The translations under genes and the position numbers were made by a program. Under the pieces are notes generated by a model that worked only from the letters and a program-made list of their open reading frames with translations, was not told the origin of the DNA and ran no database searches. From an uncultured Gemmatimonadales bacterium (GTDB lineage Bacteria > Gemmatimonadota > Gemmatimonadetes > Gemmatimonadales > GWC2-71-9): a stretch of 64,000 bases of DNA. The stretch is from positions 320,001-384,000 of the forward strand of contig CAVZZO010000001.1 in NCBI GenBank assembly GCA_963779755.1, written 5' to 3'. This document shows positions 50,161 through 64,000 of the stretch, piece by piece. Position 1 is the stretch's first letter. Each line of letters starts with the position of its first letter.

Positions 50161-50188
50161 GCAGGGGCGCGGCATGCCGCGCCCCTAC
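50161..50188. repeat. GTAG-type REP-like palindrome between convergent genes
   Basis: Perfect 24-bp palindrome AGGGGCGCGGCATGCCGCGCCCCT (50163-50186); reads GTAGGGGCG... on the minus strand. Confidence 0.7.
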
Positions 50189-50562
50189 CGGCCGCTCCGC
50201 TCCATCAGCTGCAGCAGCTCGCGGTACATGGCTTCGGCCTGGTCCGGGTCGCCGGAGCGGATGGCCTGGGTGGCGCAATGCCGGAGGTGGTTCTGCAGCA
50301 GCGCGCGGGACACACTGCGGAGCGCCTCCTGTACCGAGGCCACCTGGGTCACCACGTCGGTGCAGTAGCGCTCTTCCTCGACCATTCGCTGCAGCCCGCG
50401 CACCTGGCCCTCGATGCGCTTCAGCCGGTTCTGCACCGACCGTTTCAGCGCCGGATCGACTCCCACGGCATGTTCCCCGTCGCCCGGGCGGACGCCGCAG
50501 GCGCAGGCGGCGCTCGTACTGGCCAGATCTCCCCGGCGGGTTCCGTTACTGTTCGCGTTCAT
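50185..50562 (-). CDS. csoR: CsoR-family copper-sensing repressor
   Basis: RLKRIEGQVRGLQRMVEEERYC and HLRHC (Cys-His-Cys ligands); extra N-terminal CAC. Confidence 0.93.
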   Translation of the reverse strand: MNANSNGTRRGDLASTSAACACGVRPGDGEHAVGVDPALKRSVQNRLKRIEGQVRGLQRMVEEERYCTDVVTQVASVQEALRSVSRALLQNHLRHCATQAIRSGDPDQAEAMYRELLQLMERSGR

Positions 50563-50575
50563 GTGCTCTCCACTG

Positions 50576-50652
50576 GAAGGAATCGGGAATCGGGAGTCAG
50601 GGTGTGGTGCTGTCCCTGAATCCCGACTCCTGATTCCTGATTCCTGATTCCT
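50576..50652. repeat. Heptamer-repeat palindrome (GGAATCG/TTCCTGA-like) between copA and csoR
   Basis: GGAATCG x2 plus GGAGTCA, mirrored by ATCCCGA CTCCTGA TTCCTGA TTCCTGA. Confidence 0.78.
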
Positions 50653-50655
50653 CCC

Positions 50656-52980
50656 TCAGGCACTTCTCAATCTCAACGAGTTGGACACCACGCTGACGCT
50701 GCTCACCGCCATGGCGGCGGCGGCCATGGCCGGCGAGAGCAGCAGGCCGAGCGCGGGATAGAGGATGCCCGCCGCCACCGGGATGCCGACCACGTTGTAG
50801 ATGAAGGCCCAGAAGAGGTTCTGCCGGATGACCCGCAGAGTCTGCCGGGCCAGCCGGATGGCCCGTTCCACCCCGCGCAGGTCGCCCTGCATCAGGGTGA
50901 TGGCGCCGGTTTCCATGGCGACGTCGGTTCCGGTGCCCATGGCAATACCGACATCGGCCTGGGCCAGCGCCGGGGCGTCGTTGATCCCGTCGCCCACCAT
51001 GGCCACGACGAGGCCCGACTCCTGGAGCCGTTTCACTTCGCGCAACTTGTCCTGCGGCAGCACTTCTGCGATGACCCGATCGGCTCCGATCTCGCGTCCG
51101 ACCGCCTGGCCAGTGGCCCCGCTGTCGCCGGTGAGGAGAATGACCTGGAGCCCGAGCGCGTGCATCCGCTCCACCGCCTCCCGGCTGGTGGGCTTTATGG
51201 GGTCGGCCACGCCGAGAATGCCGATCAGCTTCCCCGCGCGGGCGACATAGACCGGGGTGCTGGCGCTGGCCGCCAGCCGGTCGGTATCGGCGGCGGTGGC
51301 AGGATCCACGCCGTGTTCCCGCATGAGGGCGGCGTTGCCAACCATGATTACGTCGCCGCCCACCTTACCGCCGACACCCTGCCCGGGATAGAGCGTGAAG
51401 TCGCGGGCGGGAGGGAGGCTGATCCCGTCATGCTCGGCGGCGCGGACGATCGCTTCGGCCAGGGGGTGTTCGCTCAGCCGGTCCACCGCGGCGGCGGCGG
51501 CGAGCAACTCGGGCGCGGCAATCCCGTACGGCAGCACGCTGGTCACGGCCGGCTTGCCCTGGGTGACCGTCCCGGTCTTGTCGAGCACGACGACGTCTAT
51601 CTGAGTCGTGCGCTCCAGTACCTCGCCGCCCTTGATGAGCACGCCCAGCTCCGCGCCGCGGCCGGTCGAAACCATGACGGCCGTCGGCACCGCCAGCCCC
51701 ATGGCGCAGGGGCAGGCGATGATGAGCACGGTGACGGCGGCGATCAGGGCATGCAGGTAGTTCGGCCCCGGGCCGAAGTCGTACCAGATGACGAAGGTGG
51801 CGATCGCCAGGGACATCACGACGGGCACGAACACGGCGGCGATGCGGTCGGCCAGCCGCTGGATGGGAGCCTTGGAGCCCTGGGCCTCCTGCACCAGCTG
51901 CACGATGCGTGACAGCATGGTGTCGGCCCCCACGCGGGCGGCCTGGAAGCGGAAGGCCCCGTTGCCGTTGAGCGTGCCGCCGACCACCTGTGCGCCCGGC
52001 TCCTTGCGCACCGGCATGGGCTCGCCGGTGAGCATGGATTCGTCCACGCTGCTGGTGCCTTCGGTCACCACGCCGTCCACCGGAATCCGCTCCCCCGGCC
52101 GTACCAGGATGAGATCGCCCACCCGGAGCGTTTCGACGGCGACGTCGATCTCCCGGCCATCGCGCACTACGCGGGCCGTGGTGGGCCGGAGGCCGATCAG
52201 CCGCCGGATGGCCCCAGACGTCCGCCCCTTGGCGGTGGCCTCCAGCAGGTTGCCCAGCAGAATGAGCGCGATGATCCAGACCACGGCCTCGTAGTACACC
52301 TGGGGGGTCACGCCGTGGGCCGCGAACCAGCCTGCCCCCAGCGTCATCGCCGCGCTGAAGAGAAACGCCGCGCCGGTGCCGACCGCGATGAGGGTGTTCA
52401 TGTCGGCGCTGTGGTGGCGGAACGCCGCCCAGGCCCGGACGTAGAAATGCCGGCCCGCCCAGAACACTACCGGCAGCGTGACGCCCAGCAGCACCAGCCG
52501 CAGCACTTCTGGGGGGAGTGCAAAGACGGCGGGGAAGACGCCCTCGAGCCAGCGGCCGACCGGCATCATGAGCCGCATCAGGGGATCGGCCGTGCCGCCC
52601 TCGGACTGCATGAGCGGTATGGACAGCAGCATGGTCAGCACCGCCGCCACCGCGCTCACGATGAGCTTGCGGCGGAGGAGGGTGATCTCGCGCGCGCGTT
52701 CCTCGTCCTGTTCGGCGACCCGCGCTTCCGGTGTGCTCGCTCCGGCCGGCACGGAGGATTCGTAGCCGGTATCCCGGATGGCGCCGACCAGCTGCTCGGG
52801 GGTTACGACCGCGGGGTCGTAACTGACCGTCGCCGAGCCGGTCATCAGGTTGACGTTGGCGGAAACGACGCCGGAGGACTTCTCCAGGGCACGCTGCACC
52901 CGGGCGCTGCAGGCGGCGCAGGTCATGCCGCCGACGGGCAGGGTGCAGGTCTCGGGGGTGGGCGTCAGCGTGGAGCTCAT
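50656..52980 (-). CDS. copA: Cu(I)-translocating P1B-1 ATPase CopA
   Basis: GMTCAAC metal-binding domain, [28 protein letters not shown]. Confidence 0.97.
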
Positions 52981-52987
52981 CAGGGGA

Positions 52988-53107
52988 CTAATGGTGAGGC
53001 GTGAGGGGTGAGGCGTGGTTCTGCCGATGGGTTCCCAGGAAATACCAGAGAACCCAGGTGATCAGGGCGACCCCGGCCAGCGTGACGATAATGCGGTCCA
53101 GGCTCAT
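52988..53107 (-). CDS. 39-aa single-TM small protein between copZ and copA (absent from the ORF track)
   Basis: [42 protein letters not shown] overlaps the copZ TGA; stop 7 nt before the copA start. Confidence 0.72.
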
Positions 53108-53319
53108 GACTGGCTCAGGGGGAGGGCGTTGTAGCCGACTTCATTCAGGGAGTTGCAGATGGCTTCGATGCTGGTCTGTGACTCGTCGAAGGCTACTTCC
53201 GCCTGGCCCAGCTTGACGCTCTTCGTCTGGACTCCGGGCATCGCGGCCAAGGTCTTGTTGACGGTATTGAGGCAGTGCCCGCAGCTCATGCCCTGGATAT
53301 GAAGCACCAGTTCCTTCAT
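53104..53319 (-). CDS. copZ: Copper chaperone CopZ
   Basis: IQGMSCGHC HMA motif, 71 aa. Confidence 0.93.
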   Translation of the reverse strand: MKELVLHIQGMSCGHCLNTVNKTLAAMPGVQTKSVKLGQAEVAFDESQTSIEAICNSLNEVGYNALPLSQS

Positions 53320-53457: not shown

Positions 53458-54303
53458 TCAATCCGCGGCGGCGAGGCTCGCGGCGTCCGGCGCGCGGCTG
53501 CTCAGCCGCCGGCCGATATAGGCCAGCAGCAGCAGCAGGCCGAACATGCAGACGATGACCGGCCCGGTGGGGAGATCGTACCGGAAGGAGAAAGCCAGCC
53601 CGCCCGCCGAGGCGACCAGGCCGGTGAGCCAGCTGAGCGCGACCAGGACCCGCTGGCTGCGGCTGAATTGGAACGCCACGGCGGCCGGCACCACCAGGAA
53701 GGAGAACACCAGGAGCACGCCGGCGATGGGGACGGAGAAGGTGATCACGATGCCGAAGGAGAGATAGAAGAGGAAGTCCCACCAGCGGATGCGCCACCCC
53801 AGGCCCAGGGCTTTCTCCGGCTCGAAGGAGATGGTGAGGAAGCGGCGGCGCAGGGCAAAATGGAACAGCCCCAGCGCGGCGTAAATGATGGCCAAACGGA
53901 TGATGGTGGGCCAGGTGACCCAGAGGAGGCTGCCGACCAGGATGTCCTTGATGGCCTCGCTGCCGCGCGGTGCCTTGTCGGCGACGAGTATGGCGGCGGC
54001 GGAGGCCACGACATAGACGATGCCGATGATGGCCTCCTGCGGCACCCGGCCCCGTTCGTGGGTGCGGGTCAGGCTGAAGATGAGTGCGCCGATGGAGGTA
54101 AAGGCCAGGGCGTAGATGAAGGCGGTGGTGGAATCGGGCATGGCGCCGGCCAGCACCGCCACCGTCGAGCCCAGCGCCGCCATCTGCGCCAGGGAGAGAT
54201 CCACGAAGATCACCTCCCGGGCAATGATGTGGAGGCCCAGATAGGCGTGGATCGCCACGATCACCATGCAGGCCACCAGGGGCGGCAGGATCAGGTCGAG
54301 CAT
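53458..54303 (-). CDS. Metal ABC transporter permease (ZnuB/MntB-like)
   Basis: FVDLSLAQMAALG, EAIIGIVY, LVGSLL, GVLLVFSFLVVPA, DLPTGP. Confidence 0.9.
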   Translation of the reverse strand: MLDLILPPLVACMVIVAIHAYLGLHIIAREVIFVDLSLAQMAALGSTVAVLAGAMPDSTTAFIYALAFTSIGALIFSLTRTHERGRVPQEAIIGIVYVVASAAAILVADKAPRGSEAIKDILVGSLLWVTWPTIIRLAIIYAALGLFHFALRRRFLTISFEPEKALGLGWRIRWWDFLFYLSFGIVITFSVPIAGVLLVFSFLVVPAAVAFQFSRSQRVLVALSWLTGLVASAGGLAFSFRYDLPTGPVIVCMFGLLLLLAYIGRRLSSRAPDAASLAAAD

Positions 54304-54333: not shown

Positions 54334-55380
54334 CTACTTGAATACGGCGGTGAGGCCGTTGACCCAGGTATTGACCAGATCGAAATAGGTGTCGACGCCG
54401 GGCGCGCCCTGGGTGTTCTCGGGGACGATGACGGCCGTGGCACCGGTCTTCTGCGCCACCTGCTCGACGGCGCTCCGCGGGTAGTAGTTGGCGGAGAACA
54501 GCGCGGGAATATGGCGCGCCTGCATCAGGCTGATCACCTCCCGGACGTGCCTCGGCGTGGGCGGGATGCCCGGTTTCGGCTCGACGAAGGCGATGCAGGG
54601 AATGCCGAACCGGTCGCTGAAGTACACCCATTCCCGGTGGTAGCAGACCATTTCCTTCCCCCGCAGGATTTCCGTCTGCTTCAGCCAGCCGCCCAGCCGG
54701 TCGCTCAGCGGCCTGCCCTGGTACTGCTTGCCGCCCACGAAATCGAGAAACTTGTCGCTTCGCAGCAGGTCGAGCGTGGTCTCCGGGGTCAGCAGCTGCA
54801 CCAGATCGGAGCCGACCGTGGCCTCCAGAACCCGGCGCTCAAAATCCTTTTCACGCTGGGTGAAGAACCCGGCGTCCGCCGGTGCGATCCGCTGCAGGCC
54901 GGTGAGGATGTTCCGGGCGATGATGATGCCGTTGACCGGGTCGGTGTGAATGTGCGGGTTGCCCTCGGCGTGGATATCCCCCTGCGAACGATCGGTGGAC
55001 GTGGGGATCTCCAGCAGGTGGATGCCGGTGTAGGCCGTCACATACCCGGGGCCGCCCTCGATGACCTTGCGGTTGTTGGCCCGGTCGAGCAGCGGCGGGA
55101 CCCAGAGCTCAAGATCGAGCCCGGTGGTGACGAACAGGTCTGCGTTGCGCAGAATGGCAACGAAACTCGGCTTGGGCTGAACGAAATGCGGATCCTCGTC
55201 TCCCTGGGCGATGGCGGTGACCGTGCCGCGATCGCCCACGATCTCCCGGGCAATGGCGGCGTAGGTGGTGAGGCTGGTGACGACCCGGAGCGGGGCTTTT
55301 CTGGAGTGGGCAGAGGGGGCGGAGTCGGCGCTCATCAGCCCGATCGTCGTCGCGGCCGCCAGCAATGTCTGAAGTAGCAT
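54334..55380 (-). CDS. Metal ABC substrate-binding protein (ZnuA/TroA family)
   Basis: Signal peptide, DPHF, GLDLE.W, GNPHIHTDP, YH, EPKPGIPPTPRH. Confidence 0.93.
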   Translation of the reverse strand: MLLQTLLAAATTIGLMSADSAPSAHSRKAPLRVVTSLTTYAAIAREIVGDRGTVTAIAQGDEDPHFVQPKPSFVAILRNADLFVTTGLDLELWVPPLLDRANNRKVIEGGPGYVTAYTGIHLLEIPTSTDRSQGDIHAEGNPHIHTDPVNGIIIARNILTGLQRIAPADAGFFTQREKDFERRVLEATVGSDLVQLLTPETTLDLLRSDKFLDFVGGKQYQGRPLSDRLGGWLKQTEILRGKEMVCYHREWVYFSDRFGIPCIAFVEPKPGIPPTPRHVREVISLMQARHIPALFSANYYPRSAVEQVAQKTGATAVIVPENTQGAPGVDTYFDLVNTWVNGLTAVFK

Positions 55381-55411: not shown

Positions 55412-56806
55412 TCAGTAGGTCTCGTGCTTGTGGGGACCCATGGCCCAGACGACCTGGAGCGTCAGGGTGTTGTCCGATGAGCCGTCCTGCATGCGGTGGT
55501 GCTGCCCCTGCAGGCGGAGGTAGACGAATTCGCTTTCCCACCAGGTAATGACCGGGGTGAGCATCCATTCGTCGGCATAGGGGCCGCGGGGTGCCTCGAC
55601 GTAATCGTACCGGGCGCCCAGGACCCAGCGCTGCCCGGCCCTGGCCTGCACGTCGGCGAACATGCCATAGCGGCTGCTGCGCGCCCCCGCCTCGCGGGCG
55701 TGCAGGCGGTACCCCTCCAGGCGCAGCGTCACATCACGCCGCGTTCCCGCCTCGGGGGGGCGCCAGGTGAACCGGAAGTCGGCGCCGAGAATGTTGCTGG
55801 TGAGGCTGCTGTCGCGGTTGCTGCCGACGGCGCCGGTGAAGCCCAGCTGGGCGTAGCTGCTGCGGGAGAGTTGCCAGAAGTTCTGCAGCCGAGCGAGTCC
55901 CACGGGCTGTGCGCTGCCGGCCAGGAAGGGGTCGCTGGCGGTGGTGGTACCCTGCAGCCACAACTCGTGCGCACCGCCGGCCAGGGACAGTGGCAGCAGG
56001 CTGTAGACCGAGATGCCGACCCCGGCCAGGCCCTCCGAGCCGAAGAACCGCTGATACACCAGCGGGTATTCGGTCTCCGGCAGAGCGTGCAGATGCCAGC
56101 GGTTGAGGTCTCCCACCTCCTGGCGGAACTTGCCGACGTCCAGCCGCAGCTTGCCGGGAAGGCCGGACCAGTAGATGTAGCCTTCCTCCACCCCGACTTC
56201 GTCCTGCTCGAAGGTGAGGAAGACCTTGGTGTTGGAATAGGGATCGAGAGAAGATTGAAAGGCCAGCTCGAACTCCCGCGCGTCGAAGTTGTTCCGCTGC
56301 ACCCCGCGGTCTTTGGCCGAGATGCGGATATCGCCGGTGGCGCTGATCTCCGGATTGAAGCTGTTGAGATTGCGCTGCTTGCTCACGAACTGAGTGCCGC
56401 GGGCCCCCGCATCGCCGCGGGCGGCCGGCTGCGCCGCTGCATCCCCGGCCGCCCCGGCGGCGGCGGCGCGCAGGGCCGCCAGGTCATCCGCCCCGCCGGT
56501 GTCGGCGGCAAGCGAGGGCGCGGCGGGAGCACAACGGGCTTGTTGCAGCCGGGCAACCCGGTCGCGCAGGCGGCGCAGCGCCGAGCTCATCGAGTCGGTG
56601 GCGGCATCGCCGGTGGGGCCCGGCAGCTTGAGCTGCAGAGGACCCCGGGGACAGCTGCCGGCGTCGAGTGAATCGAGCCGGGCCTGGAGCTGCTCTACGC
56701 CGTGCCGGAGGGAGTCGAGTCCGGCGGCGGGTTGCTGGGCCTGCAGCGCGGGTGCGGCGCCACTCAGCAGTGCCGCCAGCGCCAGAACGCCTGATGATGT
56801 ACGCAT
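55412..56806 (-). CDS. Outer-membrane beta-barrel/porin with N-terminal coiled coil, putative metal uptake
   Basis: Signal peptide, NPEIS..GD, amphipathic strands, His-containing C-terminus MGPHKHETY; GGGAG RBS. Confidence 0.78.
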   Translation of the reverse strand: MRTSSGVLALAALLSGAAPALQAQQPAAGLDSLRHGVEQLQARLDSLDAGSCPRGPLQLKLPGPTGDAATDSMSSALRRLRDRVARLQQARCAPAAPSLAADTGGADDLAALRAAAAGAAGDAAAQPAARGDAGARGTQFVSKQRNLNSFNPEISATGDIRISAKDRGVQRNNFDAREFELAFQSSLDPYSNTKVFLTFEQDEVGVEEGYIYWSGLPGKLRLDVGKFRQEVGDLNRWHLHALPETEYPLVYQRFFGSEGLAGVGISVYSLLPLSLAGGAHELWLQGTTTASDPFLAGSAQPVGLARLQNFWQLSRSSYAQLGFTGAVGSNRDSSLTSNILGADFRFTWRPPEAGTRRDVTLRLEGYRLHAREAGARSSRYGMFADVQARAGQRWVLGARYDYVEAPRGPYADEWMLTPVITWWESEFVYLRLQGQHHRMQDGSSDNTLTLQVVWAMGPHKHETY

Positions 56807-56946
56807 GTTGTCTCCCAGCCTGTGCGGAGTCCCCCGCAAGCGTCTTTGCGGAGCTCCCGCGCTTCGTCATCCCGGCGGTTCCTGCCGGTGCATTTCCACC
56901 GCCGCGCCTCTCTGGCGACGGGGGTGGAGGGGCTGCAGATGTCGAG

Positions 56947-57297
56947 TCAGACCAGGAAGGAGGGAGGGGCTCGGGAGAGGGTACTGGTATGGATCGTGAC
57001 CCCCGACCACCAGATGATCTCCGGGGAAGTGATCGGGAGGATACGCGTTTCGGGGAGGACGATGGCCCCGGAGGCCACCTGCCAGACGTGACGGGGGACG
57101 GACCACGCCAGGCCGAGGAGACAGCGCTCGGCGTGGCAGCCGCCCTCGTCGGACGATTCGAAGTGCGGACCGACGGCCTGTTCGGCGTGGCCCCGATGGT
57201 GGGCGAAGGCGTCGAACACCGGCACGCCCAGACTGCTGCCGACGAAGGCCAGCAGGAGGAGCAGGGCGAGGGCGCGGCGAGCCGAGCGGAAGCGCAT
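56947..57297 (-). CDS. Putative metal-sensing leader/arrest peptide 1 (116 aa, C-terminal SRAPP)
   Basis: Signal/TM segment, AHHRGH..PH..GGCHAERCLLG, LSRAPPSFLV-stop; paralogue of 63110-63448. Confidence 0.8.
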   Translation of the reverse strand: MRFRSARRALALLLLLAFVGSSLGVPVFDAFAHHRGHAEQAVGPHFESSDEGGCHAERCLLGLAWSVPRHVWQVASGAIVLPETRILPITSPEIIWWSGVTIHTSTLSRAPPSFLV

Positions 57298-57380
57298 GGT
57301 CAAGCGCAAGATAGCCGGGCGGCCGGGGCCGGAACACCGGGACGGCATACCCGTACGACGGTGGTCCGGCCCCACGGGAT

Positions 57381-60300
57381 TCAGACCTCCAGCCGGTCGC
57401 CGTCGCGGGCGACCACGGCATAGAGCGCGGGCATCAGCAGCACACTGATGAAGAGCCGGGAGAAGAGACCGCCGACGATCACCAGGGCAAAGGGCTTCTG
57501 CGAGTCCGATCCCACGCCGGTAGAGAGCGCCGCCGGCAGCAGGCCGAAAGCCGCCACCAGTGCCGTCATCATGATGGGCCGGAGCCGGAGCACGGCGGCG
57601 GTGCGGGTGGCTTCGGCGATACTGGAACCGGCCCGGCGCAGCTCGTTGGCGTAGGAGATGTAGACCACCGCGGTCTGCACCGAGACGCCGAAGAGGGCGA
57701 GGAAGCCGATCCCCGAGGACACCGAGAAGGGAGTCCCGGTCACCGCCAGTGCCACCAGGCCGCCGATGGGGGCGGAGAGCACGACGCCGGCCACGGTAAT
57801 GAAGGGAAACTTGAAATTGCTGTAGAGCGCAAACAACAAGAGGAAGATGATGAACAGGGTCAGCGGCACGATGATGCGGAGCTGGTGGCGTGAGCTGGTG
57901 TATTCCTGGTACTCGCCACCCCAGACTACCCGATACCCGGCGGGCAGATGGACGGTGGAGGTCACCTGTCGCTGGGCGTCCTGCACCGCGCCGGCCAGGT
58001 CGCGGCCTTCGACCGAGTACTGTACCCCGATGAACCGGGCGTTATCCTGGCGGTAGATGAACGAGGCTCCGTTGGAGAGCGCAATGGTCGCCAGCTCCTT
58101 GAGCGGGACCTGCGCCCCGCCCGGCGTGGCCACGAGAATGTTGCCGATCTCCTCAGGCGTCTGCCGGAAGCGCGGCTGGAGGCGGACCACCAGGTCGAAG
58201 GTCCGCTCTCCCTGCACCACGCCGGTAGCCGACACCCCGCCCACCGCCGCTTCGATGAGGCCGTTGATGTCATCCACGCCCAGGCCATACCGGGCGATCT
58301 TCGAGCGGTCCACCTGGATCGTCAGGCTGGGCTGGCCCAGCTCCTGGACCAGGGTGACGTGGCGGATGCCGTGCACCCGCTGGAGCACATTGCGGATCTG
58401 CTGCCCCTCGGTCTGCAGCGTGTCGAGGTTGGGACCGAACACCTTGACGTCCAGGGCGCTCTTGAGGCCGGTCTCGGCTTCGTCCACCGCATCCTCGGCG
58501 GGCTGGGTGTAGTTGAAGATGATACCGGGAAATTGCCGCAGCCGCTGATTGATGTCGTCGATCAGCTGGGCCTTGGTGTGGATCTTCCCCTGCCATTCAC
58601 CGTACGGCTTCAGCCCGACGTAGAACTCGGCGTTGAAGAAGCCGGTGGGATCGGTGCCGTCGTCGGGCCGGCCGTGCTCGGATGCGACCACGGTCACCTG
58701 GGGATAGGAGCGGAGAATGGCGCGAATCCGCGGAACGATCTGCGACGATTCTTCGAAGGAAATCGTGTACGGCATGGTGGCGCGAACCCAGAGCGCTCCC
58801 TCATCCAGGTGAGGCATGAACTCCGCGCCGATCAGGGGCAGCAGGAGCAGCGAGAGGGCGAAGATCGCCACCGAGCCGCCGATGGCGGGCCAGCGGTGCG
58901 CCAGGGTCCAGTCGAGCGAGCGTTCGTACGAGCGGCGCAGTGCCTCATAGAACGGGTTCCGCCGCTCCCGCACGCCGTGGCGCAGAATCCAGGAGCAGAG
59001 CACGGGCACCAGGGTCAGGGTGAGCAGCAGCGAGCCGATCAGCGCGAAGATCGTGGTGTCGGCCATGGGGCGGAAGAGCTGGCCCGAGGGACCCTTCAGC
59101 ACGTAGATAGGCAGGAAACCGGCAATGATGACCGCCACGGCATAGAAGATGGGCCGGTCCACCTCGGCGGCGGCCGCCGCGATGACCTCACGCAGGCGAT
59201 ACTGGGTGCCGTACCTGAGGGCGAGCTGGCGGTGGATGTTTTCCACCATCACTACCGCGCCGTCCACCAGGATGCCGAAGTCTATCGCGCCGATGGAAAG
59301 CAGGTTGGCCGGAATGTGCCGCAGGTCCAGGCAGATGAAGGCGAAGAGCAGGGCGATGGGTATGGTCACCGCCACGATCAATCCGCTCCGGATGTCATAG
59401 AGGAAAAGGATCAGCACGGCGATGACCAGGCTGATCCCCCGCAGCAGGTTGTCTTCCACCGTGCGGGTGGTGAGTGCGATCAGGTCGCTGCGGTCGTAGA
59501 ACGGATGGATCTTCACATCCTTCGGCAGAATGTGCTCGTTCAGTTCGCGGGTCTTCGCCTCCACCTGCTTGAGCACGGTCTGGGCCTGCTCGCCTTTCCG
59601 GAGCAGGATGACGCCTTCGACGGCATCGTTCTGCGCGTTGTAGCCGAACTGCCCCAGGCGCGGGGCATGGCCGATCACCACGCTGCCGATGTCCTTGACC
59701 AGCACGGGCGTGCCGTTGTGGACCGCGAGCACGGTGTTGCCGATGTCGTCCAGGGTGTTGAGCCGCCCCAGGCCGCGCACGTAGTAGAACTGGCCGCCCT
59801 CGGAGTAGAACCCGCCGCCGGCGTTGCTGTTGCCCTTGCCCAGGGCATCCACGACGTCGCTCACCGCCAGCCCGGCGGCCGCCAGGCGGGTCGGGTCGAT
59901 CTGGACCTGGTACTGCATGGTCTCGCCGCCCAGCGGGGAATCGTCGGCCACACCGGGGACCGACCGGTACTGCCGCACGATGACCCAGTCGTTCAGCACC
60001 TTGAGGTCCATCGCCGTCCGGTCGGGACTCTGCAGCACGTAGCGGTAGACCAGGCCCGAGGGAGAGAAGAGCGGCGATACGCCGGGGGCGACACCATCGG
60101 GCAGCTCCGCATCGGGCAGGCGTTCGAAGACCTGTTCCCGGGCGAAGTAGTTGTCGGTGCCGTCCTCGAAGGTGAGCCGGATGTTGGAGAGGCCGTAGAG
60201 CGAGATGGACCGGATGACCCGCAGGTGGGGCAGCCCGTTCATCTCGACTTCAAGCGGCACGGTGATGAGGCGTTCCACCTCCTCCGCGGCGTGGCCCGGC

Positions 60301-60497
60301 CACTGGGTGGTGATCTCCACCATCGGGGGAGAGAGATCGGGATAGGCGTCCACCGGCAGCCGGGTGAAGGACCAGATGCCCCCGCCGATCAGAATGAGCG
60401 CGCAGAGCACGACCAGGAACCGCTGATTCAGGCTGGTCCCGACGATCCGGTGAATGAACGAGGTGGCCGGCGGCGTCCCGGCGGGGCTCCCGGTCAC
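57381..60497 (-). CDS. czcA: CzcA-type heavy-metal RND efflux transporter
   Basis: LPVDAYPD, EEVERLITVPLE, TM4 GAIDFGILVDGAVVMVEN, RLRPIMMTA. Confidence 0.93.
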   Translation of the reverse strand: MTGSPAGTPPATSFIHRIVGTSLNQRFLVVLCALILIGGGIWSFTRLPVDAYPDLSPPMVEITTQWPGHAAEEVERLITVPLEVEMNGLPHLRVIRSISLYGLSNIRLTFEDGTDNYFAREQVFERLPDAELPDGVAPGVSPLFSPSGLVYRYVLQSPDRTAMDLKVLNDWVIVRQYRSVPGVADDSPLGGETMQYQVQIDPTRLAAAGLAVSDVVDALGKGNSNAGGGFYSEGGQFYYVRGLGRLNTLDDIGNTVLAVHNGTPVLVKDIGSVVIGHAPRLGQFGYNAQNDAVEGVILLRKGEQAQTVLKQVEAKTRELNEHILPKDVKIHPFYDRSDLIALTTRTVEDNLLRGISLVIAVLILFLYDIRSGLIVAVTIPIALLFAFICLDLRHIPANLLSIGAIDFGILVDGAVVMVENIHRQLALRYGTQYRLREVIAAAAAEVDRPIFYAVAVIIAGFLPIYVLKGPSGQLFRPMADTTIFALIGSLLLTLTLVPVLCSWILRHGVRERRNPFYEALRRSYERSLDWTLAHRWPAIGGSVAIFALSLLLLPLIGAEFMPHLDEGALWVRATMPYTISFEESSQIVPRIRAILRSYPQVTVVASEHGRPDDGTDPTGFFNAEFYVGLKPYGEWQGKIHTKAQLIDDINQRLRQFPGIIFNYTQPAEDAVDEAETGLKSALDVKVFGPNLDTLQTEGQQIRNVLQRVHGIRHVTLVQELGQPSLTIQVDRSKIARYGLGVDDINGLIEAAVGGVSATGVVQGERTFDLVVRLQPRFRQTPEEIGNILVATPGGAQVPLKELATIALSNGASFIYRQDNARFIGVQYSVEGRDLAGAVQDAQRQVTSTVHLPAGYRVVWGGEYQEYTSSRHQLRIIVPLTLFIIFLLLFALYSNFKFPFITVAGVVLSAPIGGLVALAVTGTPFSVSSGIGFLALFGVSVQTAVVYISYANELRRAGSSIAEATRTAAVLRLRPIMMTALVAAFGLLPAALSTGVGSDSQKPFALVIVGGLFSRLFISVLLMPALYAVVARDGDRLEV

Positions 60498-61627
60498 TGG
60501 TTCTCCGCGAACCGCAGAAACAGTCCGCCCTCGGCCACGATGCGCTCGCCCGGCGCCAGGCCGGAGGTGATTTCGTAGCTGTCATCCACGTGCGAACCGA
60601 GGGTGATCTGGCGGCGCTCGAAGCCTTTTCCTGAATCGGCCACAAACAGGAACGGCAGGTTATTCTCGTCGCGCTGCACCGCCGAGGCGGGCACCAGAAT
60701 GCCCCGGCGGCCGTGACGCGAGTAGATGGTGACACGGACGAACATATCGCGCTTGAGGACATCGCCAGGGTTGGGCGTCAGGATCCGGACAGAGGTCGCC
60801 CGGGTGTCCGGGTCTACCAGCGAGGCGACGTAGGTGACGCGCCCGGGGAAGACGCGGTTGTCGTCGGTGGGGCTGATGCTGGCCGAGTCGCCTTCGGTCA
60901 CGTCGGGCAGGTCGGATTCGAAGACGTTGGCCATGACCCAGACGGTGCCCAGGTCGGCAATGGTGAAGCAGGGTGTGGCGCCGCTCTCCAGCAGCTGGCC
61001 CGGGGTGATGAGCTTCTCCACCACCACCCCGGCGATGGGCGCGCGGATCACGGCCTGGGCGGCCTCGACCGCACGTCCCTGGCGGATGTCTTCGATGGTG
61101 GCGGAGTCGACGCCGAGCGAGCGCAGCTGCTCCCGTGCGGCATCCCGGTCGGCGGCGGCCGAGGCGGCGTCCGTCTGGGCCTGTTCCAGATCCCGCCGCG
61201 CCAAGGCGTCGGTGTCGAAGAGTTTCTGGTCAAGGTCGGCGATGTGCTGGGCGTTGTGCGCGGCCACCACCGCCTTGCGGTAGTCGGCGATGGCAGTGGC
61301 AAAGTCAGGGGACGCGACCACCGCCAGGGCCTGGCCCGCCGCCACGTGGGCGCCCGGCTGGACCAGGATACGTACCACCGGGCCCGAGATGGGCGCGAGT
61401 ACCTGCGTGCTGCGGTCGCCGTTGAAGGCCACGGTGCCGGTGACCGTGACGGACGGCTGAAAGGCCACGGGGGCAACCGGCGTGATCCGGAGCTGGTGGC
61501 GCTGGGCCGGAGTGAGAACGAACTCCGAATCGGCCGCGCCGTCGCCGCCGGCCGGCTCGGCACGGTGGCAGGCGCCCGCCAGCAGCAGGCAAGCGAGGGC
61601 GGCAAGAGCCCCGATCCTAGTGGTCAT
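60494..61627 (-). CDS. RND periplasmic adaptor (CzcB-like lipoprotein)
   Basis: Lipobox-like LAGAC, APISG, IRAPIAG, IADLGTVWV, GLAPGERIV. Confidence 0.92.
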   Translation of the reverse strand: MTTRIGALAALACLLLAGACHRAEPAGGDGAADSEFVLTPAQRHQLRITPVAPVAFQPSVTVTGTVAFNGDRSTQVLAPISGPVVRILVQPGAHVAAGQALAVVASPDFATAIADYRKAVVAAHNAQHIADLDQKLFDTDALARRDLEQAQTDAASAAADRDAAREQLRSLGVDSATIEDIRQGRAVEAAQAVIRAPIAGVVVEKLITPGQLLESGATPCFTIADLGTVWVMANVFESDLPDVTEGDSASISPTDDNRVFPGRVTYVASLVDPDTRATSVRILTPNPGDVLKRDMFVRVTIYSRHGRRGILVPASAVQRDENNLPFLFVADSGKGFERRQITLGSHVDDSYEITSGLAPGERIVAEGGLFLRFAENQ

Positions 61628-62939
61628 GCTGTTCTCCAGACGAGACGGTATCGAGCGGAGCGCCAATCGCGCGCTCCAGGTCGGCGCGGGCATCGTTGGC
61701 GGCGCCCAGGGCTTCGGCATACTGGCTTTTGGCGTCGAGCATGGTGCGACGGGCATCCAGCACCTCCAGGCTGGAGGACCCTCCCAGCCCGTAACTCTGG
61801 AGCGCGATCTGATAGGCACGGGTGGCTTCCGGCAGCAGCTCGTCACGCAGGTACACTGCCTGAGCGAGCGCGGTGGCGGCCGTGGCATAGGTGGCGCGGA
61901 CATCCTGCTCCACCTGGGCTTCGAGGTCGCGGTAGGTGGCCGCCAGCTCCTGCTCGTGGTGTTTCGATTCGGCAACCTCTCCGCCGATATGATTCCAGAA
62001 GAAGAGCGGGAGGGTGAACCCGATCGACGTGGTGTAGCTGTTGGGGGCTCCGCTCACCACGTTCTTTTCGACGCTGACACCCAGGTCGGGAACCCAGAAC
62101 TCCTTGGCCAGCGAGGTGGCCGCGGCGGCCCCGGAGCGGACGCGGGCCAGCCCCTGCAACTCGGGACGGTCGCGCAGGGCAATGCCGACCAGCAGGGACA
62201 GCTCCGGCAGGCTGTCGGGGACGCTCAGGGTATCGGTGGTGGCGATGCCGCCACCTACCGTGCGGCCGAGGAGACGATTGAGGTTGGCCCGGGCGGTGGC
62301 GAGGTCACGCTGGTTGGCCAGCAGGTTGTTGGCGGCCTGGGCGACATCTACCCGCGCCTTGATGACGTCGAGGCGCGGCACGGTGCCTCCCTCGAAGCGC
62401 GCCTCGGTCTTCTTCAGAAAATCCTCCGCCAGCGCCTTGCCCTCCTCCAGATCCGACTGGTGCTGCAGCGCGACCAGAATGGCGTCATAGGTCTGCGCCG
62501 TCGCCGAGGTCATCTGCTGCACCAGCTGGACGTAGGCGAATTCGGTGCTGCCCACCTCCGCCCGGCCGATCCGGCCCAGGAGCAGGAACTTGGAGGGAAA
62601 GGGCAGGGTCAATCCGACGCTGACGTCGCTGCCGGTCCGGGTGCCGGGCTGGAAGGGCTTGGCCAGCCCGGCGTAGTCGCCCGCGATCTGGGGATCGGGA
62701 AAGGCGGTGAGCTGGACCTTCCGGGCCCGGGCCTGGGCGATCTGCTGCCGCGCTGCCTCGAGCGCCGGGTTGTGGGCCAGCACGCTGTCGATCGCCTGCT
62801 GCCGGGTCAGGGCCAGGGCGCCCGGCGCCCCGCTCTGGGCGCGGGCGGACCTGCCCACCACCACACTGCAGCCGAGTACGATCGCCAGGCCGCGCAGTCG
62901 TCTGAAGCCGGGGATCAGGTATCCCCGTTGGTGTCTCAT
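61617..62939 (-). CDS. TolC-family outer-membrane factor (CzcC-like)
   Basis: HNPAL, RFEGG, RPEL, LPLFFWN, SSLEVLDARR; start placed at MRHQ after AGGGGA. Confidence 0.9.
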   Translation of the reverse strand: MRHQRGYLIPGFRRLRGLAIVLGCSVVVGRSARAQSGAPGALALTRQQAIDSVLAHNPALEAARQQIAQARARKVQLTAFPDPQIAGDYAGLAKPFQPGTRTGSDVSVGLTLPFPSKFLLLGRIGRAEVGSTEFAYVQLVQQMTSATAQTYDAILVALQHQSDLEEGKALAEDFLKKTEARFEGGTVPRLDVIKARVDVAQAANNLLANQRDLATARANLNRLLGRTVGGGIATTDTLSVPDSLPELSLLVGIALRDRPELQGLARVRSGAAAATSLAKEFWVPDLGVSVEKNVVSGAPNSYTTSIGFTLPLFFWNHIGGEVAESKHHEQELAATYRDLEAQVEQDVRATYATAATALAQAVYLRDELLPEATRAYQIALQSYGLGGSSSLEVLDARRTMLDAKSQYAEALGAANDARADLERAIGAPLDTVSSGEQHDH

Positions 62940-63109
62940 GCCATCCCCTGTGTCAGGATGCTCCGGGTGAAGTCGCAGCATCCGTCGCGGCCGCGCCACC
63001 GCCCCCGCTAGGCCGGGAGCTGCACGACGGCGTGCCGGATGTACACCCTGCGGTCAACGTCCTGGGGGACGCCTGCCGCGTACCTCATGTCAGTTTGTGA
63101 TGGGAAACT

Positions 63110-63448
63110 TCAGACGGCGGGAGGGGCCCGGCTCTGCGTGGTGCGGATGGCGGCGGCCCGGGGGGGCAGCGGCGCCGGCTCCGCCTGGGGACGGGAAGCA
63201 AGCTCGGCCAGCGACTGGATGCCGGAGACGGACGCCCCCACCACCTGCGGCTGCATGGTGACCACACCGAGAACACAGTGCTCGGCGTGGTTGTGGCATC
63301 CTCCGGCGGGATCGTAGTGCGGCCGAAGCGGCTGCTGGTGGTCGGAGCCAAGATGATGGGCCAGCAGGTCAAATCCGGGCAGGCCGATGCCGCTCCCCAC
63401 AAACGCGGTGAGGAGAAGGAGGGCGGCCAACCTCTGGAAGCGACGCAT
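63110..63448 (-). CDS. Putative metal-sensing leader/arrest peptide 2 (112 aa, C-terminal SRAPP)
   Basis: Signal/TM segment, AHHLGSDH..PHY..GGCHNHAEHCVLG, QSRAPPAV-stop; paralogue of 56947-57297. Confidence 0.8.
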   Translation of the reverse strand: MRRFQRLAALLLLTAFVGSGIGLPGFDLLAHHLGSDHQQPLRPHYDPAGGCHNHAEHCVLGVVTMQPQVVGASVSGIQSLAELASRPQAEPAPLPPRAAAIRTTQSRAPPAV

Positions 63449-63557
63449 GGCGGAGCAATGTAGTAGAACGCCTGCGGGGCTTACAACCCGTTGCACGCCG
63501 GCAGGTGCGGAATGCTCCCGGCACTCAAGACCCGCGAGACATCGGTCGGCTGCCGGC

Positions 63558-63615: not shown

Positions 63616-63855
63616 ATGTTAGCCCGTATTTCAAAGTGGGGAAACAGTTTAGCTGTGCGGATCCCCCGTGCCTTCGCCGCCGAGCTGGGCATTCAGGAGG
63701 GTGTGGAGGTGGAGATGTCCGTGGAGGACGGCCGCCTGGTGATCGCGCCGGCCCGGCCGGAGTACGGACTGGAAGAGCTGAGCGCCGGGATCACGCCGGA
63801 AAACCGCCACGATGAAACCGACTGGGGCCGCCCCACCGGTGGTGAGGTGTGGTGA
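63616..63855 (+). CDS. mazE: AbrB/MazE-family antitoxin
   Basis: KWGNSLAVRIP, LEEL.AGITPENRH.E.DWG.P.G.E.W. Confidence 0.95.
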   Translation: MLARISKWGNSLAVRIPRAFAAELGIQEGVEVEMSVEDGRLVIAPARPEYGLEELSAGITPENRHDETDWGRPTGGEVW

Positions 63856-64000
63856 CTCCCGACCGGGGAGACCTGGTATGGATCAGCACCGAGCCCCGGG
63901 ATGGGGGTCCCGTGTCCCGCCGACCCGCGCTGGTCGTTTCTCCGGCGCGGTATAATGAACGCTCCGGCCTGGCGCTTATGTGCGCCATCGCCAGCCGGGT
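63852..64000 (+). CDS. mazF: PemK/MazF-family toxin (partial, runs off the window)
   Basis: GTGA overlap; MTPDRGDLVWI..RRPALVVSP..YN..SGLALMCAIASR. Confidence 0.88.
   Translation, partial: MTPDRGDLVWISTEPRDGGPVSRRPALVVSPARYNERSGLALMCAIASR

Follow-up and report, generated by a model that had tools for sequence, protein, structure and literature searches.

CxxC-less relatives of CruR/DUF2946 arrest leaders head divalent-metal transport operons in Gemmatimonadales

Two short open reading frames (ORFs) in a 64,000-nucleotide (nt) stretch of DNA from an uncultured Gemmatimonadales bacterium (GenBank assembly GCA_963779755.1, contig CAVZZO010000001.1, positions 320,001 to 384,000; here called the window) head two adjacent metal transport operons, and an earlier note on this DNA had proposed them as metal-sensing leader peptides. 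Their sequences indicate that the leaders are a genuine, unannotated variant of the CruR/DUF2946 arrest leaders that lacks CxxC and heads operons for divalent-metal transport. The principle is not new, nor are the target classes; the novel details are the ligand set, the covarying anti-Shine-Dalgarno (anti-SD) element, and the importer/pump sister pair. We consider it fairly probable that the leaders are cis-acting ribosome arrest peptides of the DUF2946/CruR clan, with the downstream operon ON during the stall and the metal releasing it.

Two leader peptides and their family

Both ORFs were found where the earlier note had placed them, on the minus strand, which it had not stated: leader 1 (57297 to 56947) has 116 amino acids (aa) and leader 2 (63448 to 63110) has 112 aa. 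They align as closely as proposed (42% identity across 114 columns; BLASTP E value, 2e-16), and the motif SRAPP does stand 2 to 4 residues before the stop codon, with 4 residues following it in leader 1 and 2 in leader 2. The linker between Cys and SRAPP, put at ~45 aa, exists and measures 47 to 48 aa. Each leader also heads an operon that starts with an outer membrane protein, as had been noted; the genes encode a porin-like protein, a substrate-binding protein (SBP), and a permease after leader 1 and an outer membrane efflux protein (OEP), a CzcB-type adaptor, and a CusA/CzcA-type resistance-nodulation-division (RND) transporter after leader 2. The two leader-operon units lie in tandem, leader 1 starting 83 nt past the stop codon of the RND gene. 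The spacers of 140 nt (after leader 1) and 170 nt (after leader 2) have the lengths given earlier, but not the structure ascribed to them: at 68% GC, both fold no better than shuffled sequences (z scores, -0.11 and -1.13).

A search of the 4.2-Mb genome with the family profile returned exactly two matches, leaders 1 and 2. Only seven of the 200 frames ending in RAPP or RGPP in this genome passed a filter for a hydrophobic stretch, and the only leader-like ones were again leaders 1 and 2; the pair is thus not a chance find. Both leaders fall below the cut-offs of Pfam and NCBIfam, neither having any match in NCBIfam, and control by such leaders is therefore invisible in routine annotation. The Atlas places them in unnamed Gemmatimonadota clusters, one of which has DUF2946 on 11% of its members.

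The family profile, built from 21 sequences, gathered 385 representatives (E value, ≤0.001), and conservation was assessed in 168 proteins, comprising the best 150 of these 385 matches and the first matches. In the numbering of leader 2, D27 and C58 were present in all 168, H54 in 167, R107 and P109 in 166, H32 in 165, P110 in 163, and H44 in 159, whereas C51 was found in only 118. The conserved site thus reads D-x4-H...H...H-x3-C, and RAPP or RGPP is located at the C terminus of 154 of the 168 proteins. The Cx4C/Cx6C ligand set suggested earlier did not hold: only one Cys is invariant. The other can be lost, since 43 of 83 classified genomic copies have no further Cys in the nine residues preceding the H-x3-C Cys. 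The N terminus of the family is basic and then hydrophobic, with a predicted helix at residues 2 to 18 and no evident cleavage site.

The 21-sequence profile matched 66 of the 251 genomes of the order, and a larger profile matched 102 of 301 genomes of the phylum and 71 of 124 in the bacterium's own family; the named relatives are Gemmatimonadales or Gemmatimonadota metagenome-assembled genomes. Conservation of RAPP, a check proposed by the note, was examined in 89 genomic copies (87 matches outside the bacterium's own genome plus the window pair): 85 end in RAPP (83) or RGPP (2), in varied codons, and in 84 of these 85 the motif lies 1 to 6 residues from the stop. Of the four remaining copies, one is truncated at the edge of its contig, and the reading frames of the other three continue and lack the motif. 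The distance from the H-x3-C Cys to the RAPP Arg is 48 or 49 residues in 76 of the 83 classified copies (50 and 49 in window leaders 1 and 2) and is 49 in 17 of the 18 copies that precede pumps.

Target operons

The second proposed check concerned the position before metal transporters. Downstream DNA was available for 86 of the 89 copies, three of which were classified by hand from tblastn matches, and all 86 precede such genes: a TonB-dependent receptor in 48 loci, a porin-SBP-permease operon in 20, and an OEP-adaptor-CzcA operon in 18. Every first target gene encodes an outer membrane protein that is a transporter component, and the median spacers between leader and target are 76 to 98 nt. 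SecM-like secretion monitors, which would tie outer membrane protein synthesis to Sec capacity without sensing metal, could likewise show a hydrophobic N-terminal segment, RAPP, and a first target that is always an outer membrane protein. The invariant His, Cys, and Asp residues at a fixed distance speak against such monitors, as do the metal-type transporters among the targets and the count of zero sec or yidC first targets in 86 loci, and we regard this explanation as very unlikely.

Two to four leader copies occur in 19 of the 66 genomes, mostly on different targets. In a tree of 83 leaders, which was built from 116 columns and has many unresolved forks, the window pair are sisters (support, 99/96) and the target class switches 18 times, with at least 5 to 6 switches per class forced by supported branches; the cassette has therefore moved between importers and pumps repeatedly. 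The features of the two units in the window are as follows.

56947 to 57297, minus strand: leader 1; basic and hydrophobic N terminus, D29, H34, H45, H55, and C59, variable C54, RAPP at residues 109 to 112
56962 to 56973, minus strand: RAPP codons of leader 1, predicted, together with adjoining codons, to form 7.3 base pairs (expected number) with the ribosome-binding region of the porin gene
57308 to 57313, minus strand: TANNNT -10-like box 10 nt upstream of the leader 1 ATG, without a Shine-Dalgarno word; probable leaderless transcript
56807 to 56946, minus strand: 140-nt spacer, with the porin Shine-Dalgarno sequence GGGAG at 56812 to 56816
55412 to 56806, minus strand: outer membrane porin-like protein of 464 aa, unassigned in Pfam and NCBIfam; nearest family-bearing Atlas cluster, Porin_O_P (22% of members)
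54334 to 55380, minus strand: ZnuA-family (cluster A-I) metal-binding protein with His65, His143, and His248; best NCBIfam model AztC, below cut-off
53458 to 54303, minus strand: ABC-3 permease, ZnuB/AztB-like; the operon lacks an ATPase gene
63110 to 63448, minus strand: leader 2; D27, H32, H44, H54, and C58, variable C51, RAPP at residues 107 to 110; weak DUF2946 match
63119 to 63130, minus strand: RAPP codons of leader 2; no predicted pairing with the downstream ribosome-binding site
63457 to 63462, minus strand: TANNNT -10-like box 8 nt upstream of the leader 2 ATG; probable leaderless transcript
62940 to 63109, minus strand: 170-nt spacer after leader 2
61617 to 62939, minus strand: OEP, CzcC-like
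60494 to 61627, minus strand: periplasmic adaptor; best NCBIfam model CzcB/NccB, below cut-off
57381 to 60497, minus strand: heavy-metal RND transporter (CusA/CzcA family) with a DFG-D-EN motif (divalent type); nearer to ZneA than to CusA

The porin-like protein is retained at 41% to 65% identity upstream of ZnuA-like genes in Gemmatimonadales, and in size it resembles the zinc-regulated outer membrane receptors of a published RAPP table. Of 18 porin-SBP-ABC-3 loci, only L113 has an ATP-binding cassette (ABC) ATPase gene in the ~4.5 kb that follow the leader, and the other 17 have none; the permease may borrow an ATPase or work otherwise. At the edge of the window (63616 to 64000, plus strand), a MazE antitoxin (Pfam) is encoded; the frame that overlaps its 3' end is cut short by the window boundary and probably encodes a MazF-type partner.

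Relation to DUF2946

The DUF2946 match that the note had asked about was seen in profile comparison and not at the level of the Pfam gathering score. Against PF11162 (gathering score, 23.7 bits), leader 2 reached 17.4 bits (E value, 0.0078) and leader 1 gave no match; 19 of 143 family members matched at an E value of ≤0.05, the best at 6.3e-4. Alignment of the family with the CxxC-containing DUF2946 set by hhalign gave a probability of 97.7% (E value, 2.2e-12; the score includes a contribution from RAPP and the hydrophobic segment), with D, HxE, H, the Cys, and RAPP in register and CxxC missing from the family. The family profile also finds several of the CxxC DUF2946 loci.

PF11162 itself matched 57 of the 301 phylum genomes, and 21 of 30 loci examined end in RAPP. 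One of these 21 is a member of the leader family; the other 20 carry CxxC, its first Cys 47 to 50 residues upstream of the Arg. In CruR (Bp2923 of Bordetella; DUF2946/PF11162), the corresponding distance, from C90 to R139, is 49 residues (PMC9426467). Sixteen of the 20 CxxC relatives precede homologues of the same receptors, OEP-CzcBA operons (RND proteins 70% to 76% identical), or porin-SBP-permease operons. The remaining four (L127, L129, L135, and L145) come from other families of the class; the gene that they precede encodes an ABC ATPase and not an outer membrane protein.

Because CxxC relatives in sister families stand on the same operons, the ligand change follows lineage and not target. 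The alignments indicate that the family is a lineage-specific, CxxC-less form that has probably lost the second Cys of CxxC. The suggestion of a divalent-metal branch is accordingly half upheld: the targets are of the divalent type, and the ligand change marks no target switch.

Predicted pairing of the RAPP codons with the downstream ribosome-binding site

The RAPP codons may double as an anti-SD sequence to the leader's own downstream ribosome-binding site (RBS), a possibility that is supported by covariation and is clear for leader 1 and not for leader 2. The first Pro codon of RAPP is CCT in 36 and CCA in 27 of 85 copies (63/85), compared with 7% each (14%) in neighboring coding sequence. 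Pairing was analyzed in 69 of the 83 start-called loci, the other 14 having been dropped by eye beforehand because RAPP was missing or the start was doubtful. The sequence CCTCC is present in 33 of the 69, versus 6.3 expected after synonymous recoding. When the 21 nt that begin with the Arg codon were matched to downstream RBSs, the RBS of the same locus gave better pairing than those of other loci (z score, -6.2), whereas five upstream leader segments and four coding segments used as controls gave z scores of -1.3 to +0.4. The preference persisted after dereplication at 50% identity (-4.9 to -6.1 in 45 to 47 loci) and in a smaller dereplicated set of 32 to 34 loci (-3.3 to -4.8). Full folds have at least three RAPP-RBS pairs in 27 of 38 receptor loci and 11 of 16 porin loci. 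For leader 1, 7.3 pairs are expected and the footprint of the stalled ribosome opens the RBS in 36 of 36 fold settings. RBS-opening energies did not separate importer loci and pump loci (P = 0.49); since this measure is biased toward opening by the removal of upstream sequence, it was not used as family-level support.

Intrinsic terminators in the spacers were rejected, T4 runs being present in only 6 of 83. This rejection, the presence of a rho gene in the genome, the composition of the 30 nt around RAPP (52% to 60% C and 16% to 23% G), and the Rho dependence of CruR output (PMC9426467) would all suit a model in which the leaders act by Rho-dependent termination, with the odd RAPP codons forming a C-rich rut site and not an anti-SD sequence. 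A rut site, though, predicts no locus-specific complementarity to the leader's own RBS, and we consider Rho-dependent termination an unlikely replacement for RBS masking; both outputs can coexist.

The leaders are probably translated from leaderless transcripts, as judged from their upstream sequences. Upstream DNA was usable for 76 leaders, and 47 of these have a TANNNT box 5 to 10 nt before the ATG, compared with 137 of 1,919 ORFs called roughly across the genome and just 1 of the 83 target genes; Shine-Dalgarno words precede 9 of the 76 leaders and 69 of the 83 target genes. In nine leaders of family f3 (L046, L049, L054, L055, L061, and L072 to L075), GGAACC was seen by eye ~17 nt upstream of a TATACT-like box, a promoter that resembles an extracytoplasmic function (ECF)-like -35 element joined to a sigma70-like -10 element.

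Which metal is sensed

In ZneA numbering, the window RND transporter retains D602, E610, and D654, with D658 replaced by E and E136 by L. The ZnuA-family SBP carries three His at ligand positions, a mark of zinc-type proteins. In five of eight receptors tested, the ZnuD model (123 to 237 bits) outscored the copper receptor model (55 to 92 bits), all below cut-off; the other three matched neither, and heme receptor models ranked first in four of the eight. The RND transporter scored 755 bits against ZneA and 542 to 544 bits against CusA; compared with the pumps of Cupriavidus metallidurans, it was closest to the putative ZniA (733 bits; assigned by its position adjoining zne), followed by ZneA (654 bits) and CzcA (615 bits). 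Its DFG-D-EN motif is the one given for divalent exporters (PMC11647595). On these sequence comparisons, we put the chance that the metal is zinc at about even.

Copper (or nickel or cobalt) would fit if the leaders were CruR orthologues with a degenerate CxxC. Register and spacing match CruR, CxxC relatives head orthologous operons, so that the ligands do not identify the metal, and copper genes adjoin: copZ, a copA-type P1B ATPase gene, and a gene for a CsoR/RicR-family repressor directly follow operon 1 (window positions 50185 to 53319, minus strand), and CopZ-like genes follow 7 of the 48 TonB loci. The ZnuA/ABC-3 and DFG-type RND targets and the ZnuD preference of the receptors point away from copper, as does the true CusA of this genome (1,150 bits), which is served by a separate Cys/Met-rich leader ending in PPP. 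Copper is rather unlikely in our view.

That separate, CutF-like leader (contig 1, 1499286 to 1499714, minus strand) lies 81 nt upstream of cusC-cusB-cusA. It has a signal-like N terminus, four Cys, a Met-rich composition, and a PPP motif at its end, has no NCBIfam match at an E value of ≤1e-20, and is followed, just past its stop codon, by a pyrimidine run complementary to the cusC Shine-Dalgarno sequence. The genome also has two Fur-family genes.

Proposed mechanism and site of sensing

In the mechanism that we favor, the leader would be transcribed from its own -10 box, probably without a 5' untranslated leader, and the ribosome would stall at RAP|P, as shown for CruR by toeprinting, where Pro3 occupies the P site and Pro4 the A site during the RAPP-dependent stall (PMC12992588). 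By covering the RAPP codons, the stalled ribosome would keep them from pairing with the downstream RBS, so that the operon would be translated during the stall; the pairing is supported by covariation, and its effect on translation is predicted from it. A divalent metal, most likely zinc, would bind D-x4-H...H...H-x3-C ~50 to 80 residues upstream, compacting the nascent chain, releasing the stall, and switching the operon OFF. The importer and the Zni/Zne-like pump would both be ON under metal scarcity.

The polarity of the pump is the weakest step and is chosen for parsimony: the same sensor before an importer and a pump is a paradox unless the pump is starvation induced, as are ZniCBA and ZneCBA, which rise under EDTA (PMC11647595). 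Alternatively, the pump may be switched oppositely and be ON when metal is in excess: metal might lengthen the stall, as it does in CutF, or the spacer might invert the signal. Excess normally induces efflux pumps, CutF works in this way, the DUF2946 gene CC2720 of Caulobacter heads the zinc-activated czrCBA operon, and leader 2 has no anti-SD pairing, some fold settings closing its site on stalling. Opposite switching nevertheless sits poorly with the ligands and spacing common to importer and pump leaders, the sister relationship of the window pair, the lack of a difference between target classes in predicted RBS opening, and the starvation response of the closest C. metallidurans pumps, and we hold it to be possible and rather improbable.

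Several further observations weigh against our mechanism of stall-dependent RBS opening and metal release. The His/Cys conservation is partly built into the profile that gathered the members, which favors its own invariant columns; the contrast between C51 and C58 is still informative, since C51 was present in 20 of the 21 seed sequences and yet dropped. AlphaFold2, given 143 sequences, returned helices only and no folded site (predicted TM score, 0.35). One control segment reached z scores of -1.6 to -2.2 after dereplication; three base pairs of RAPP-RBS pairing are reached in only 5 of 15 pump loci; and the advantage of native over recoded codons is significant for TonB loci (P = 4e-6) and not for porin (P = 0.43) or OEP (P = 0.25) loci. 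Leader 2 shows 0 bp of RAPP-RBS pairing, its site opening in 12 and closing in 9 of 36 fold settings. In 13 of the 20 CxxC-relative loci, where start codons are unreliable, the preference for pairing with the own RBS did not replicate (z score, -0.4).

The earlier note placed metal binding in the periplasm. Predicted distances to the stalled P site are ~51 residues for C58, 65 for H44, and 77 to 82 for D27 and H32, whereas in LepB segments reach SecYEG at ~45 to 50 residues and periplasmic folding pulls at ~70 (bioRxiv 2021.02.06.430026). A purely periplasmic location is therefore not possible for a site with C58 among its ligands; such a site would either draw the Cys out or become complete only at the mouth of the translocon or the tunnel exit. 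CruR, which has the same spacing, regulates without need of its signal (PMC9426467), and periplasmic sensing by the leaders appears doubtful.

The widest reading would be that a single arrest peptide, sensing zinc through a 3His-1Cys(-Asp) site, forms a portable translational regulon, repeatedly duplicated before zinc importers and a Zni/Zne-like pump, with stall codons acting as anti-SD sequences and all targets, the pump included, ON in zinc starvation. Taken whole, this is speculative and rather improbable. If true, it would be the first zinc-gated ribosome arrest switch in the literature searched and would offer a genetic handle on why some efflux pumps appear in starvation.

Comparison with known systems

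The note's suggestion of an undescribed branch goes too far. Mixed Cys/His and His-only Ni/Co clusters, as well as OEP/CzcC neighbors, have been published for such leaders, and the Fig. 4B source data of a catalogue of RAPP/RGPP upstream ORFs list RAPP entries before TonB receptors (5,450), RND adaptors (620), TolC (530), DUF2796 (137), and CusA/CzcA (50), plus rows before zinc-regulated outer membrane receptors (PMC12992588). We found no ligand set, metal, or RNA switch defined there for these target classes; the list carries no taxon names, and the present family may be among its entries, as it may be among the CutF-like proteins of PMC9973294. A search of three supplements of the CruR study gave no Gemmatimonad matches (PMC9426467). 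Within the literature searched, most subscription papers lying outside it, copper is the only metal shown to gate this leader class, and we found neither zinc gating of a RAPP leader nor a RAPP leader with this ligand set. The CxxC-less, His-rich form on divalent-metal operons makes a clear-cut candidate for a nascent chain that senses zinc. With sister leaders before an importer and a pump of the same genome, it can be tested directly how one sensor sets equal or opposite outputs, and so can the reported starvation role of Zni-type pumps.

The leaders resemble CruR in being a small first gene with an export-like N terminus, a C-terminal RAPP, and a long spacer, in having a TonB receptor as the commonest target, in being predicted to be ON when stalled, and in carrying an invariant Cys at the same distance from the Arg as the first Cys of CruR. 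They differ in having one invariant Cys (then x-L), three His, and an Asp instead of CxxC, in falling below the Pfam cut-off, in their divalent-type targets, which include a pump, and in showing evidence for RBS masking, whereas CruR uses Rho.

With CutF and CutF-like proteins, the leaders share an export-like leader with a Cys/His site and a Pro-rich end before metal genes (PMC9973294; bioRxiv 2025.02.05.636593), and an OEP (CusC/CzcC) is the commonest neighbor of CutF-like proteins (PMC9973294), as with our pump leaders. CutF itself has CxxxC and PPP, needs its signal, and is stalled by copper (bioRxiv 2025.02.05.636593); our leaders have neither motif, and the CutF-like type exists in this genome as the separate gene before cusCBA. 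A stem masks the Shine-Dalgarno sequence in CutF; in the leader family, masking is suggested by family-wide covariation, with leader 1 positive and leader 2 negative.

CzcI of C. metallidurans and Caulobacter CC2720, which heads the Zur-activated, zinc-activated czrCBA operon (PMC4176598), are likewise DUF2946/CutF-like first genes of Zn/Cd RND operons, and czcI2 is also leaderless. CzcI is reported to quench CzcCBA in trans (PMC10127602) and, with its signal, His-rich sequence, CxxC, and position before czcC, has the same layout, so that our leaders might be exported trans-acting metal chaperones or pump modulators. CzcI, however, ends in RAPD and not RAPP; in our family RAPP, its spacing, and its codons are selected, whereas the 47-aa linker is not, and three unrelated transporters are preceded by the same peptide. 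A trans-acting role is accordingly the most improbable of the alternatives. In czcI (L123, 15177 to 15524), CxxC lies at a CruR-like distance from RAPD, which is located nine residues before the stop and may be an arrest motif that has degenerated. The zni/zne and czc regions examined in C. metallidurans CH34 yielded no RAPP leader.

Finally, SecM, ApdA, and ApdP also combine a RAPP-like arrest with a masked Shine-Dalgarno sequence that the stall frees (PMC10987492). Those peptides precede sec or yidC genes and have no metal site, whereas the leaders described here have transporter components as their first targets in all 86 loci.

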